This document shows positions 40,921 through 64,000 of a DNA stretch of 64,000 nucleotides, in pieces. Within the stretch, counting starts at the first letter, position 1, and every line of letters starts with the position of its first letter. Source of the DNA: Candidatus Latescibacterota bacterium (GTDB taxonomy: Bacteria > Latescibacterota > UBA2968 > GCA-2709665); contig OZ244937.1 in NCBI GenBank assembly GCA_965222075.1, positions 256,001 through 320,000 on the forward strand. Direction: 5' to 3'. The position numbers were made by a program, and so were the translations under genes. The notes under the pieces were generated by a model. The model saw only the letters and a program-made list of their open reading frames with translations, was not told where the DNA came from and made no database searches.

Positions 40921-41756
40921 AGGCGGAGTCCGTTGACAAACTGTATTTGGCGGCGGCAGGCCGGCAGGCGAGTTCTACCGGGAGGCGCTGGCGTTGTTGG
41001 ACAAGGCTGAGAACACGTAGCCTGGGTCGGAGCCGGAGATGGTGGTGATTCCGGCGGGCCGTTTTCGGATGGGCTGTGTATCCTTTAGAGACTGCAGGGA
41101 CAACGAGCTGCCGGTGCGCGAGGTGGCGATCCGATCATTTGAACTGTCGAAGTACGAGGTGACGTTCACGGAGTACGATCGCTTCTCGGCAGCGACGGAT
41201 CGCGAGCGGCCGCACGACAGAGGCTGGGGCCGGAGATGGCGTCCGGTGATCGAGGTTTCGTGGAAGGACGCGGTGGCGTGTACACAGTGGCTGTCGTCGG
41301 AGATGGGCAAGAGCTACCGTTTGCCGAGCGAGGCGGAGTGGGAGTATGCGGCCTGCCTGTCCGAGGGACGCAGGCAGGCGCGTGCGGGCTCGGTGACGAA
41401 GTATAGTTGGGGGAATGAGATCGGTCGCACACCAGGCCAATTGCGAGGGGTGCGGCAGTCAGTGGGACAATGAGAAGACGGCATCGGTGGGTTCGTTCGG
41501 CCCCAACGCCTGGGGCTTGTACGACATGCACAGCAACGTGTGGGAGTGGGTGCAGGACTGCTGGCACGCCAGTTACCGGGGCGTGCCAGCGGACAGGTCG
41601 GCCTGGGAGAGCGGCCATTGCTCGGGTCGCGTGTTGCGCGGCGGCTCGTGGTTCAACTTACCCAGGTACCTCCGCGCCGCGTACCGCAGCAGGTTCACCA
41701 CCGACGTCCGCAACAACATCGACGGTTTCCGTGTTGCCCGGACGCTTACCCCTTGA
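40921..41756 (+). pseudogene. FGE-sulfatase (C-type lectin-fold) protein, frameshifted; DGR-target-like
   Basis: PEMVVIPAGRFRMG, RLPSEAEWEYA, NAWGLYDM, RVLRGGSW..GFRVAR; frameshift near 41429; N-terminus broken. Confidence 0.85.
41352..41378 (+). repeat. 27-bp palindromic micro-element inserted in frame
   Basis: CCTGCCT GTCC GAG GGAC GC AGGCAGG; removal restores EAEWEYAARAG. Confidence 0.9.
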
Positions 41757-59225: not shown

Positions 59226-61652
59226 ATGAAAAAATGGATTTTTCATCTCACCGCACTAACCGGATTGAATGTTTGCATTTTCGCGTTGCTCTATCTCTTG
59301 TGTGCGGGCGATGCCTCTGCTCAGCAAATCCAGACGCCTGCTCCGCCGAGCATGGACGGTGATTTTCAGACGTGGCATTTGCCCGAAGGTGCCCTCGCCC
59401 GCCTGGGCAAGGGAGCCATTGGTGAAGGCGACCGGGCGGTGGCGCTTTCGTCTGACGGGAAATATCTCGCCGTGGCCAGTGGCGTCGGCGTGTGGCTGTA
59501 CGAGATGGCGACGTCCCGTGCCCTGGCGCTGCTACCCACTGCGAGTCCAGTCTATTCGGTGGCGTTTTCGCGCGGCACCATGCTCGCTTCGGGTTTGGTC
59601 AATGGCAGGATTGAGCTATGGGAGGTCAAAACGGGCACGCGGATTGCCATCTTTGAAGGGCGCAGGTGGGTTCGAGTTACTTCGGTGTTGTTTTCGCCTG
59701 ATGGTGCCACTCTCGTTTCCGGCTCTTATGATGGCGCGGTCAGGCTGTGGGATGTGGCGTCCCGAAAACGCATCGCCACCCTGGAAGGGCATACAGAGCA
59801 GGTCACTTCGGTGTCGTTTTCGCCTGATGGTGCCACTCTGGCTTCCGGGTCGCAGGATAAAGCGGTCAAGCTGTGGGATGTGGCGTCCCGAGAAGAGGTC
59901 GCTACCCTGGAAGGGCACTGGCATTTGGTCAGTTCGGTGTCGTTTTCTCCCGATGGCGACATTGTTGCTTCCGGGTCGTGGGATCGCACGGTCAGGCTGT
60001 GGGATGTGTCGGCCCGCGAAGAGATCACTACCCTGGGGAGGCACAGTTCTATTATCAGTTCGGTGTCGTTTTCGCCTGATGGCGCCACTCTGGCTTCCGG
60101 GGGAAGGGATCACACGGTCAGGCTGTGGGATGTGGCGTCCCGAGAAGAGGTCGCCACCCTGGAGGGGCATACGTATCGCGTCAATTCTGTGGTGTTTTCT
60201 CCTGATGGGACCACTCTCGTTTCCGGGGCAGCGGACGGTATGGTTCTGCTGCGGGATGTGGAGACGGGAAATGTCGCCAGGCTCTCCGGGTATATAAGTG
60301 TCAGCTCGTTGGCGTTTTCTCCCGATGGGACCACTCTGGCTTCCGGCTCTAATGATGAAACGATCAAGCTGTGGGATGTGGCGTCCCGAGAAGAGGTCGC
60401 CACCCTGGAGGGGCATACGTATCACGTCAATTCTGTGGTGTTTTCTCCCGATGGGACCACTTTGGCTTCCGGCTCTGAGGATGAAACGATCAAGCTGTGG
60501 GACGTGGCGGCCCGAGAAGAGGTCGCCACCCTGGAGGGGCATACGTATCGCGTCAATTCTGTGGTGTTTTCTCCCGATGGGACCACTTTGGCTTCCGGCT
60601 CTGAGGATGAAACGATCAAGCTGTGGGATGTGGCGACCCGAAAAGAGATCGCCACCCGGAAAGGGCACTGGTATGGAGTCAATTCTGTGGTGTTTTCTCC
60701 CGATGGGACCACTCTGGCTTCCGGGGGAGGGGATGGCACGGTCAGGCTGTGGGATGTGGCGTCCCGAAAAGAGGTCGCCACGCTGGAGGGGCATAGGAAT
60801 AGGATCAATTCTGTGGTGTTTTCTCCTGATGGGATCACCCTCGCTTCGGGGGGATCGGATCGCACGGTCAGGCTGTGGGACGTGGCGTCCCGAAAAGAGA
60901 TCGCTGCCTTTGAAGGGCATACGGATGAGGCCATTACGTCTGAGGTCAATTCTGTGGTGTTTTCTCGCGACGGGACCACTCTGGTTTCCGGCTCTTATGA
61001 TGGCGCGGTCAGGCTGTGGGATGTGGCGTCCCGAAAAGAGGTCGCCACTCTGGAGGGGCATACGGATGGGGTCATTTCTGTGGTGTTTTTGCCCTATAGG
61101 ACCACTCTGGTTTCCGGCTCTTATGATGGTACGATGTTGTTGTGGGATATGTTGCCGTACATCACCTCATGCACGCCGAGGCCGCCGGTGAAAATCTACG
61201 GCGACAAACAGGAAGGAATGGTCGGAACCGCTTTGGCCAAGCCGTTTGTCGTTTGGGTGTTGGATGAGAAGGGGGCGGCGTTTGAAGGCGTGCCGGTCTC
61301 GTTTGCTGTGACTGCAGGTGGGGGGAGGCTCTCTGTTGAGACCACGGTGACGGATGCGAATGGTCGAGCATCGAGCACGCTGACGCTTGGGAGTGAACCA
61401 GGCACAAACACCGTTGTGGTAAGGGTTGCAGGAACTGAGGAGACGGCGACCTTTGTCGCAGAAACTTTAGCTATGCCCGACTTTGACGGCGATGGTGCGG
61501 TGGGTTTTTCCGACTTTTTGCTGTTTGCCCAGCAGTTCGGGTTACGTCAAGGCGATGCGGGGTATGACGCGCGGTATGATCTGGATGGGGATGGGACCAT
61601 CGGGTTTGGGGATTTTGTGATTTTTGCCAAGGCCTTCGGGAAAGAAGGTTGA
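59226..61652 (+). CDS. secreted WD40-repeat protein with Big_1 and EF-hand/dockerin-like tail
   Basis: Signal peptide; about 14 WD40 repeats; same upstream GGAGCAGGGGCCAATG as 51725. Confidence 0.9.
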
Positions 61653-61662
61653 CCTATCTGCG

Positions 61663-61709
61663 CCTGCCTGTGTTCCTCCCACACGCAGGCCGGGTCTTCG
61701 GCAGGCAGG
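61663..61709. repeat. 47-bp compound micro-element
   Basis: CCTGCCT GTGT TCCTCCC ACAC GC AGGCCGG plus GTCTTCGGCAGGCAGG. Confidence 0.75.
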
Positions 61710-61769: not shown

Positions 61770-62051
61770 ATGCGTTTCTTCAACACGGCCGGTCCCATCA
61801 AGCCGGATATTCACTACGATGTCCCGCCGTTGGAACGGATTGACCTGGACGAGGTGCCGATGCTGATCGAGCAGCAGAGGTACTTTGTCATGCACGCGCC
61901 CCGGCAGACGGGCAAGACGTCCTCTCTGCTGGCCTTGATGGACGAGCTGAACGGCGGCGGGCGGTATCGCTGCATGTACGTGAACGTGGAGATCGGCCAG
62001 TCCGCACGCGGGATACGAAAGCTACGGTGTGGGGGATGTGAAGGGAAATGA
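61770..62051 (+). pseudogene. internally deleted copy of the AAA ATPase gene
   Basis: First 80 codons match 57271; at 62010/62011 the sequence jumps to the gene's last about 30 nt. Confidence 0.85.
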
Positions 62052-62279
62052 CTCCGCAGTGATGATAGGAGAGTAGATCCATGAAACCCCCCGTTCTTTG
62101 TATTGCAGATCGAAAATTTATCGTATTGAACGTGATGTGTGACTTTAAATAGGAGAAAGGAGGTCTTAAGGCTACCTTGTAAGTATCACCAAAACGAGGC
62201 AGCCAACCCCCAACAGGAGGGACCTCCAAATGTATAATTTAGAACTATTCGTCATCGCTGTCTACTGTTTAATTGCCGA

Positions 62280-62312
62280 CCTGCCTGCCGCGCGGTGCTT
62301 GGCGCAGGCAGG
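62280..62312 (+). repeat. 33-bp micro-element, in frame (LPAARCLAQAG)
   Basis: CCTGCCT GCCGCGC GGT GCTTGGC GC AGGCAGG; removal gives ADELY. Confidence 0.9.
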
Positions 62313-62804
62313 TGAGTTGTATCCCAACTTCTGTCAAAGATATGGCCCCCCCCGTCGGGCAGGCTTTTCACCAACCCTGAGTGATGCGGAATGCCTGACG
62401 ATTGAAATCGTTGGACAATTTCTGGGCTATCCCAATCAAAAGCAACTCTTTGAGCGGATGCGTGAGCGCTTCGGCACCTGGTTTCCAGATCTAAAAGAGA
62501 GGGAGGCCTTTGTGCGCCAATCGGCCAATCTTTGGCAGGTCAAAGCCATTTTACACCAGCAGTTGGTGGAAAGGTTAGGTGGCCATCACGCCCCCTGTCA
62601 GATCATTGATACCCTGCCCGTTCCCATCTGTCACCTGGCACGGAGGTGGAGGCGAAAAATCTTCAAAACAGACCCCGTCTTTGATTTTCCAGACCCCACC
62701 AAGGGCTACTGTGCGGCCAAAAAGGAAGCATACTTTGGCTTCAAAGGGGGACTGCGGATCACAAAGGATGGCCTGATTGTTCACGCGCCGCTGTTGCAAG
62801 CCTA

Positions 62805-62837
62805 CCTGCCTGCAGCGCAGGGCACTGCGCAGGCAGG
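62805..62837 (+). repeat. 33-bp micro-element, in frame (LPAAQGTAQAG)
   Basis: CCTGCCT GCAGCGC AGG GCACTGC GC AGGCAGG; removal gives QAYGHD. Confidence 0.9.
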
Positions 62838-62894
62838 TGGTCATGACTCAAAGTGCCGCGACCAACTTCTGGAGGGAGTGCAACCCGATACCTT

Positions 62895-62921
62895 CTTGCC
62901 TGCGCGCAGCGCGCAAGCAGG
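62895..62921 (+). repeat. 27-bp micro-element, in frame (LPARSAQAG)
   Basis: CTTGCCT GCGC GCA GCGC GC AAGCAGG; removal gives TFVLGD. Confidence 0.9.
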
Positions 62922-63095
62922 TGTGTTGGGCGATACCGCTTTTTTGGATCTAAACTGGCAGGAAGCGTGTCAAAAACGCCATCAGGTGCGGGTTTTAACC
63001 CCCATCAAATCCAATATGAAGCCAACCCCACAGCGCAAACCCTTTATACTATCTGGGGTGGGAAAAACCCTGCGACGGTTGATTGAAACCGTCTA

Positions 63096-63122
63096 CCTGC
63101 CTGTGCGTTGCACGCAGACAGG
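63096..63122 (+). repeat. 27-bp micro-element, in frame (LPVRCTQTG)
   Basis: CCTGCCT GTGC GTT GCAC GC AGACAGG; removal gives IETVYAQL. Confidence 0.9.
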
Positions 63123-63223
63123 TGCACAACTGACCCAACGCTTTCAGGTGGCCAGAATGAGGGTGCGCGATGCCTGGCACTTCAGAACCTCTGGACCACC
63201 AAAATCTTAGCGCATACAGTCTG

Positions 63224-63275
63224 CCTGCTTGCCTGTCTGCCTTCGGCACAGGCAGGCGCGCTGCGCGCAGGCAAG
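63224..63275 (-). repeat. two nested micro-elements (27-bp outer, 25-bp inner at 63232-63256)
   Basis: Outer is the exact reverse complement of 62895-62921; removing both gives AHTVCVFLN. Confidence 0.9.
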
Positions 63276-63420
63276 CGTGTTCCTCAATATCCAGCTGCAA
63301 CGAGATCCCTTAGATTTTGAGGGACTCGTCCGATTCTAAAAAAAGTCTCACATGACGTTTGCTTCTACTACAACACAATTGCCCATCAATCGTAACTGAT
63401 TGTGGGCTTGTTCGTTTTAT

Positions 63421-63456
63421 TGTTGCAAACTACAACACGCGTTGTAAATTGCAACA
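63421..63456. promoter_or_regulatory. operator/enhancer-like inverted repeat
   Basis: TGTTGCAAACTACAAC-acgc-GTTGTAAATTGCAACA (14/16 match). Confidence 0.5.
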
Positions 63457-63648
63457 TTTTTCGTTCCCGCCTTACAACTTTTCCTATAACTACATTTATA
63501 AACAGGAAGTTATAAAATTCCTTCCGCATGGACTTGTTCTCCGGAGGGGTTTTTGCGTTGCATTTTGCGACAATTTCCAAAATTCCCGCTGCTCCCATAT
63601 TCTGCCTAACTCGTTCAATGGAAATGAGTTAGGCAGATTTTTGAGATT

Positions 63649-63664
63649 TGGCACACATTTTGCA
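63649..63664 (+). promoter_or_regulatory. sigma-54 -24/-12 promoter consensus
   Basis: TGGCAC-ACATT-TTGCA. Confidence 0.55.
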
Positions 63665-63696
63665 TGTACAGTTGAAAAGATCGTGCCATCCATATC

Positions 63697-63807
63697 CCTG
63701 TCTGCCTGCTTGCCTGTCTGCCTGCTTGCGCGCTGCGCGCAGGCAAGCGTGCAACGCACAGGCAGGCGCGCTACGCGCAGGCAAGCGTGCGGTGACGCAC
63801 AGGCAGG
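63697..63807 (-). repeat. four-level nested micro-element stack (30+27+27+27 = 111 bp)
   Basis: Left arms at 63697, 63705, 63713; intact innermost element 63721-63747; right parts 63748-63766, 63767-63785, 63786-63807. Confidence 0.92.
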
Positions 63808-63973: not shown

Positions 63974-64000
63974 CCTGCCTGCAGCGCGGTACGCCGCGCA
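63974..64000 (+). repeat. micro-element cut by the window end (33-bp class)
   Basis: CCTGCCT GCAGCGC GGT ACGCCGC GC A...; GGCAGG is predicted to follow. Confidence 0.75.

Follow-up and report, generated by a model that had tools for sequence, protein, structure and literature searches.

A probably mobile family of hairpin micro-elements in and between the genes of a Candidatus Latescibacterota bacterium

We analysed a window of 64,000 nucleotides (nt) from a Candidatus Latescibacterota bacterium (assembly GCA_965222075.1, contig OZ244937.1, positions 256,001 to 320,000), whose range 62280-63807 holds about ten copies of a palindromic micro-element, CCTGCCTG...CAGGCAGG, some of them nested. 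The exact arm pattern has three matches in the 64-kb window and none in 100 shuffles. The copies lie in and around a decayed transposase gene of the insertion sequence (IS) family IS982. The features are listed below, with the supporting evidence in brackets; a dot marks features that carry no strand assignment.

62230-63320, + strand: decayed IS982-family transposase gene, host of the insertions (tblastn, protein alignment, list of open reading frames, ORFs)
62280-62312, + strand: 33-nt micro-element of the CCGCGC..GCTTGG type, in frame with its host gene (covariance model, 54.3 bits on + and 27.9 on -)
62805-62837, + strand: 33-nt micro-element with inner stem GCAGCG/CACTGC, in frame (covariance model, 53.9 bits on + and 29.8 on -)
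62895-62921, strand. : 27-nt symmetric variant CTTGCCTG CGCGCAGCGCG CAAGCAGG (pattern search, fold)
63096-63122, strand. : 27-nt variant CCTGCCTGTGCGTTGCACGCAGACAGG, in frame (11 genome copies of the exact sequence)
63224-63275, strand. : nested pair, a 25-mer within a 27-mer (host element restored by in-silico removal)
63697-63807, strand. : four elements nested successively, 30+27+27+27 = 111 nt (in-silico removal, fold z = -4.1)
63974-64000, strand. : 33-nt element crossing the window end (extends to genome position 320006)
61663-61689, strand. : 27-nt copy, inner stem GTGT/ACAC, located upstream of the range 62280-63807 (fold z = -3.1)
41352-41378, strand. : 27-nt copy with inner stem GTCC/GGAC, within a predicted 145-aa ORF (fold z = -2.8)

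The product of the host gene shows 30% identity to annotated IS982 transposases with 96-98% of the query covered (tblastn). The gene runs as ORF 62230-63210, is frameshifted near 63190 and continues in another frame (ORF 63108-63320) to 63320. In a protein alignment, two IS982 homologues are gapped exactly at the micro-elements of the window protein, and the four elements inside the gene share one reading frame, giving the peptides LPAARCLAQAG (62280), LPAAQGTAQAG (62805), LPARSAQAG and LPVRCTQTG (63096). IS982 itself was ruled out as the parent of the micro-elements since this gene is single-copy in the genome, decayed and interrupted by them. In the 62280-62312 copy, + is the strand that carries a bulge on its 3' side, and the 62805-62837 copy has a predicted fold of -14.4 kcal/mol (z = -3.4). 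The 62895-62921 copy is bulge-free, with one mismatch and one G.T pair between its arms, and belongs to a symmetric variant with 15 strand-collapsed copies genome-wide. In case of the 63096-63122 copy, a C.A mismatch on one strand corresponds to T.G on the other. The inner 25-nt element of the nested pair (63232-63256) sits after the 8-nt left arm of its host, and each inner element of the 63697-63807 array follows directly on the 8-nt arm of its host.

Genome-wide, an arm-pair search allowing at most one mismatch per arm returned 451 matches in 5.36 Mb compared with 37 in a reversed-sequence control. Element sizes range from 21 to 45 nt, with length modes at 33 nt (98 matches) and 27 nt (92 matches). 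Invariant arms, (R)CCTGCCTG(C) and (G)CAGGCAGG(Y), flank a variable inner stem-loop by which several subfamilies can be told apart, and in most copies one side has two additional bases (GC or AC). Across phyla the sequence of the outer arms does not vary, and hundreds of copies, also in different phyla, share the same sharply defined ends. When 150 of 7639 candidates were scored with a covariance model, 128 matched at E <= 0.01. The counts given below for bulge, length, stop codons and end tags refer to 243 good copies, 187 of which could be oriented.

The original prediction held that these elements conserve a bulged hairpin through compensatory changes in the inner stem. All inner pairs that it named are present, namely GTCC/GGAC at 41352, GTGC/GCAC at 63096, GCGC/GCGC at 62895, GTGT/ACAC at 61663, GTGCG/CGCAC at 63786-63807 and, with one mismatch, GCAGCGC/GCACTGC at 62805. 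The covariation is supported both by a multi-phylum set and by the 33-mers of this genome. For the former, 119 matches to CCTGCCTGC-N15-GCAGGCAGG were collected from public genomes of many phyla, of which 84 were oriented by a pair-independent tag and, together with two window copies, yielded 77 distinct sequences for analysis. In the best orientation, four of four inner positions were paired in 52 matches and three of four in 36, compared with 4% and 25% for random inner sequence. Under the named structure, 93.2% of the cells in the 77 sequences were paired, and the covariation score of 0.134 (0.075 +/- 0.006 when shuffled) was reached by none of 500 shuffles, while controls with slid partners scored at most 0.039. 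The inner stems of this set alternate among CGCG/CGCG, CGAG/CTCG, CGAA/TTCG and AGCG/CGCT. Within this genome, 91.5% of inner cells were paired in 43 distinct 33-mers (75.9 +/- 1.5% when shuffled).

As for the predicted 2-nt bulge, scores of the covariance model on the two strands differ by about 25 bits, and the 2-nt asymmetry is therefore real; it is found in 187 of the 243 copies, the other 56 being ambiguous or symmetric. The bulge is GC in 148 orientable copies, AC in 37 and TC in 2, and the 27-nt CCTGCTTGCGCGCTGCGCGCAGGCAAG type found at 62895 has no bulge. A left-arm T and a bulge A always occur together (33 copies, 13 distinct sequences). This co-occurrence, which could be taken as shifted-register pairing, was not counted as covariation and looks like the shared ancestry of one subfamily. 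The asymmetry between G.T and A.C for the folding strand is 26 to 14 in the multi-phylum set and opposite in the commonest subfamilies of this genome.

Comparison with a genome of the same genus, G001, revealed seven insertions at six sites that are empty there. Two of them, a 33-nt and a 21-nt insert, lie in purL (formylglycinamide ribonucleotide amidotransferase), where the G001 stretch has 89% protein identity to the window genome; in most other relatives the purL protein match breaks at the same place. Both purL insertions are precise and lack a duplicated target. The five further empty sites lie in conserved genes and hold inserts of 39, 60 (27+33, nested), 36, 36 and 45 nt, all precise and of lengths divisible by three. 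No target-site duplication was found at any of the seven insertions resolved against G001. The two 20-kb regions richest in elements gave no usable comparison, one being largely a 16.5-kb island absent from G001 and the other having only scattered G001 matches; three copies in locus L178 and one in L177 have no usable G001 counterpart. Metagenome assemblies provided a further comparison. A contig in runs X2 and X6, which belong to two studies, joins 62279 to 62314 with a single G between, skipping 34 nt. This is an allele of the IS982 gene without the 62280 copy, from a related strain or copy, since there are further differences elsewhere in the contig. A junction that leaves out exactly 63697-63807 occurs in all four runs and is a weak hint, given its short sides of 18-26 nt. 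Further, metagenome contigs end at elements.

Two neighbouring observations concern the same comparison. The element-dense 16.5-kb stretch (~2820316-2836793 of G000, the window genome; L174 2838-19315) is missing in G001, where its flanks adjoin, and is probably an accessory island. A separate repeat of about 250 nt, at L176 9218-9463 and L177 1411-1678 (G000 near 1821217 and 1986410), matches more than 20 G001 contigs, often at contig ends, and looks like a distinct MITE-like family (MITE, miniature inverted-repeat transposable element).

Insertion sites are not random. Of the 187 oriented copies, 166 have a purine at position -1 and 164 a pyrimidine at position +1, with G^C (60) and A^T (44) as insertion steps; the wider flanking preference, CCGR^YSSG, is weak and roughly symmetric. 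Nested events fall at the boundary of the 8-nt arm and the inner part in 17 of 39 cases (7% expected, p = 3e-10), and 23 of 39 are at G^C, which makes up 19% of host steps. A new copy is thus inserted precisely and duplicates no target; it enters at a purine^pyrimidine step, mostly G^C, and the arm/inner-stem boundary of older copies is a favoured target. Such targeting gives rise to the nested arrays seen in the window.

The elements appear suited to coding sequence. Their length is divisible by three in 186 of 243 copies, and 217 of 243 are stop-free in all six frames, compared with 54% of controls with a shuffled inner part. Intergenic copies share both properties, which are thus traits of the family and not a mere filter acting in genes. 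About 40% of the good copies (98) are genic, and 46 of them fall in 36 genes whose codon score is strong; among the genes hit are acrB-like transporters, purL, an ABC transporter, a molybdopterin enzyme and hsdR. In a wider set of 360 copies, 176 lie in predicted genes compared with 81% expected for random positions, and 180 are intergenic compared with 15% of random positions, an enrichment of about three-fold. Copies also accumulate in pseudogenes and islands. Being for the most part of multiple-of-three length and free of stops, copies in genes merely lengthen the product by some 7-15 residues and persist even in purL, acrB-like genes and hsdR.

The family extends well beyond this genome. 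In 30 relatives, 0 to 97 copies per genome were found, with 0 in their controls. Of 121 sampled genomes of the phylum, 24 have a match, and expansions to at least seven copies occur in ten genomes of the window's family and one of the sister family. Copy number is very patchy among close relatives (0-109). Many matching named records are titled Candidatus Latescibacterota, and the same architecture was found in records of Verrucomicrobiota, Planctomycetota, Methylomirabilota, Patescibacteria, Bacteroidota and others. Genomes reached via such records carry 41 copies (Thiorhodospira sibirica), 19 (Desulfarculaceae), 16 (Lentisphaerae), 7 (Pelomicrobium) and 4 (Nitrospira), each of the five with its own dominant inner stem. 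Matches in viral contigs show the full architecture in 11 of 16 cases. In other phyla, a number of single copies are located in genes for restriction-modification, namely hsdR at three sites (one common to two close homologues), a DNA methylase and hsdS.

Some side observations belong here. Defence-type host genes in several phyla comprise hsdR, hsdS, an N6/N4 methylase and an SNF2-PLD protein (L111, L116, L135, L074, L140, L123, G000 5154222-5157272), and Schlafen/AlbA_2 genes adjoin element-bearing restriction-modification or defence genes. In Thiorhodospira (G124, L237-L256), a micro-element stands at the tip of another palindrome (CCCCGYCCT...AGGGCGGGG), inside a multi-copy unit of more than 100 nt. 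In the window itself, a gene for an 808-aa protein with 12 WD40 repeats (59226-61652) lies just upstream of the clustered copies, a 93-aa ORF at 61770-62051 has no Pfam match, and GC skew is strongly positive for the window as a whole. In all four runs, contig depth across 61887-61965 exceeds that of adjacent sequence by a factor of 10-20, so that part of the 93-aa ORF is repeated in the community.

Taken together, these features are probably copies of a non-autonomous family of mobile hairpin elements that resembles repetitive extragenic palindromic (REP) sequences. A more specific reading is tentative, and we hold it to be possible rather than likely: that all copies belong to a single family of "codon-neutral" hairpin transposons with invariant (CCTG)2/(CAGG)2 arms, stop-free in every frame and of a length divisible by three, moved by an undiscovered cross-phylum enzyme and specialised for life inside genes, including restriction-modification genes. 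Mainly from covariation and geometry, the substrate of transposition would be a folded single strand, because a 33-bp duplex is too short to bring its two ends together; insertion without target duplication also fits enzymes acting on folded single strands. Selection for mobilisation would keep the hairpin and lead to compensatory changes between subfamilies. The enzyme would act in trans, be specific for both sequence and structure and be common to several phyla. An HUH-type enzyme is our best guess, although no candidate was identified in the genomes searched, and a folded strand read by such an enzyme is plausible. The original prediction that the substrate is read by shape is half right: the hairpin is maintained and no target is duplicated, but the outer arms are sequence-invariant across phyla.

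Several results weigh against this interpretation. The original prediction pointed to the HUH transposases of REP-associated tyrosine transposase (RAYT) and IS200 type, and neither candidate was borne out, as their genes are not flanked by elements and their counts do not follow element counts. The window genome encodes IS200 TnpA in one intact and one broken copy, together with two or three RAYT-like genes; no element lies within about 2 kb of the RAYT-like loci or near the IS200 genes, and genes found between two elements are unrelated (a helix-turn-helix protein, a sigma factor and a serpin). The nine RAYT-like loci in five element-bearing genomes of other phyla all lack an element within about 1.5 kb, and in relatives elements occur nearby in only 2 of 11 such loci. 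No phyletic link of element counts to PF01797 or NF047646 was detected, RAYT-like and IS200 genes are equally frequent in relatives without elements, and genome G004 has 32 IS200 matches and no elements. Known IS200/IS605 elements are oriented with a bias relative to replication. Here, with the origin placed at ~4.21 Mb and the terminus at ~1.34 Mb from cumulative GC skew, no such bias was found (87 vs 100, p = 0.38), which weakens the analogy but is not decisive because both strands present identical arms. As a side note on strand usage, the leading strand carries 2345 of 3729 predicted genes. The hairpin evidence has its own weaknesses. Inner pair columns 17-25 are unpaired in 32 of the 77 multi-phylum sequences, chiefly in the conserved CGCG...CTTG type, leaving an imperfect hairpin; single-copy fold z-scores are modest (-1.1 to -4.1); covariation lies partly between a few subfamilies, with fewer independent events than cells; and nested insertions show no enrichment at unpaired positions of the host fold (17/39 vs 37% expected). 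Orientation shows no bias relative to gene sense either (39:38), and the gene calls stem from a crude home-made codon-score finder. Lastly, most of 21 examined Thiorhodospira copies lie within larger repeated units or other copies, so that part of this burst may be hitchhiking and not the element's own, and some single copies in other phyla may have come by transfer of the host gene. Such transfer, at shared sites of transferable restriction-modification genes, would account for part of the spread.

The RAYT-like loci have repeats of their own. One of the two loci in relatives with elements nearby, L220 (G009:C7, 4560-6020), holds a RAYT-like gene that itself bears a different, GTAG-type REP (GGGCAGGTTTCAAACCTGCCC core) in its own frame, with another upstream. 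This gene is flanked by two larger repeat units, each containing a micro-element, and its GTAG-type REP family is absent from the window genome. In Thiorhodospira, a RAYT-like gene (L226, G124, 1300-2350) has a set of small palindromes of its own on either side and forms a classical REPtron that is not related to the micro-elements, and a (GGACGGCAGGAA)n tandem repeat lies nearby. A further RAYT-like gene, which scores 47 bits and thus falls below the family cut-off, lies at G000 3242104-3242870; a GTAG-tagged hairpin and repeated ...TTTGTGCTAC motifs come after it and may be a small private REP set.

That the searches yielded no enzyme would fit copying without any dedicated transposase. The host's own replication or repair could copy the element, a nascent strand switching onto the extruded hairpin and returning via 1-3 nt of microhomology. 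Junctions often permit a shift of 1-3 nt, for example G^CC at purL, and the presence of the element in very distant phyla also speaks for such a process. However, the ends are sharp and identical across hundreds of copies and several phyla, and the patchy counts among close relatives suggest an activity that is gained and lost. We consider this explanation unlikely, although it survives better than the others. An ordinary double-stranded MITE, with the 8-9-bp arms as terminal inverted repeats for a DDE transposase, would account for the perfect and conserved repeats and for the position of the window copies in and around a transposase gene. That gene is a victim of insertions, however, and the genome holds no IS with these ends, as 472 orphan arms show no common continuation and lie within the range for 8-mers of the same composition. 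Neither the covariation of the inner stem nor the lack of target duplication at every resolved insertion is expected of such an element, which makes this origin rather improbable. About as improbable, and if anything slightly more so, are hairpins kept for a host function in RNA or DNA (a terminator, an mRNA stabiliser or a protein-binding site) with mobility as a secondary trait. The intergenic enrichment agrees with such roles, which REPs of other bacteria have according to PMC3733652. Nevertheless, orientation is random relative to genes, some 40% of copies are inside coding sequence, copies pile up in pseudogenes and islands, and an Rfam scan of the whole window gave no match. A selected peptide module, LPAxxxxxQAG, with an incidental DNA palindrome is very improbable, for although the LPA...QAG frame is favoured (42 of 78 copies of length divisible by three) and is also the commonest where other phyla have the element in long ORFs, copies are found in each of the three phases and on both strands, half of them are intergenic, and it is base pairing and not residues that is conserved.

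We thus return to a mobile hairpin family as the preferred reading, and its implications lie mainly in its host range. A REP family normally stays within a single species or genus and goes with its own RAYT gene. Here, the same 9-bp arms, 33-nt length and 2-nt asymmetry recur in very distant bacteria (relatives of the window genome, Thiorhodospira, Pelomicrobium, Nitrospira, Lentisphaerae, Desulfarculaceae records and some viral contigs) with no cognate RAYT visible, a distribution that points to a mobilising activity either widely shared or easily transferred. For selfish DNA in compact genomes, a multiple-of-three, stop-free copy turns a hit in a gene into a small peptide insertion. In practical terms, the elements break short-read assemblies and add extra loops to annotated proteins. 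The 41 near-identical copies in T. sibirica ATCC 700588, a cultured strain according to its record, make experiments possible. If the codon-neutral, cross-phylum family is real, few known mobile elements would be as small, and no earlier REP-like family would have hosts in several phyla.

Among known systems, the palindrome-associated elements of the IS200/IS605 type, mobilised by Y1 HUH TnpA, are similar in being hairpin-dependent and in lacking target duplication, and a single-stranded intermediate is plausible for both. They differ in that the micro-elements have neither a fixed 4-5-nt target abutting one end nor a replication-strand bias. Integron attC sites, which the original prediction also invoked, are likewise folded single strands with extrahelical bases recognised by shape. 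Nothing points to integron cassettes here, however, as the micro-elements are dispersed and in genes, form no cassette arrays and lack conserved R/L boxes. Mitochondrial GC clusters, "byp" elements and repetitive hairpin-forming elements are short GC-rich mobile hairpins that invade coding regions. These are organellar, and byps are skipped by the ribosome and need no frame, whereas the micro-elements are bacterial and can simply be translated. Rickettsia palindromic elements (RPEs) are about 100-150 nt long. They are selfish palindromes found in frame in genes that still look functional, as cited in PMC3733652. RPEs have been described in Rickettsia, whereas the micro-elements measure 21-45 nt and occur in many phyla.

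The closest comparison is with REP elements and REPtrons. REPs are likewise imperfect palindromes, 20-40 nt long, that number tens to hundreds of copies and have G.T pairs in their stems; they also cluster and are themselves targets of other insertions. For Opitutus terrae, Thauera and Rickettsia conorii, REPs lying in frame inside genes have been reported (PMC3733652). Unlike REPs, the micro-elements lack GTAG, CTAC, CGTC or GACG at either end in 219 of 243 copies, flank no RAYT gene, lie inside genes in about 40% of cases and keep their arms and length constant across several phyla. Further, they nest in each other, whereas REPs form regularly spaced inverted pairs. The literature was searched for the motif, for palindromes inserted in frame and for repeats of Latescibacteria, and these searches returned no description of this family; the supplementary intragenic-REP tables of PMC3733652 may hold related families. 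Given the intragenic REPs and RPEs described in that paper, in-frame palindromic insertion is not new in kind. We read the family as a variant of REP/RPE-type elements. It is set apart by hairpins that carry no GTAG/CGTC tag and belong to no REPtron, by the length and stop-free rules, by insertion of the element into itself and by a host range that crosses phyla.

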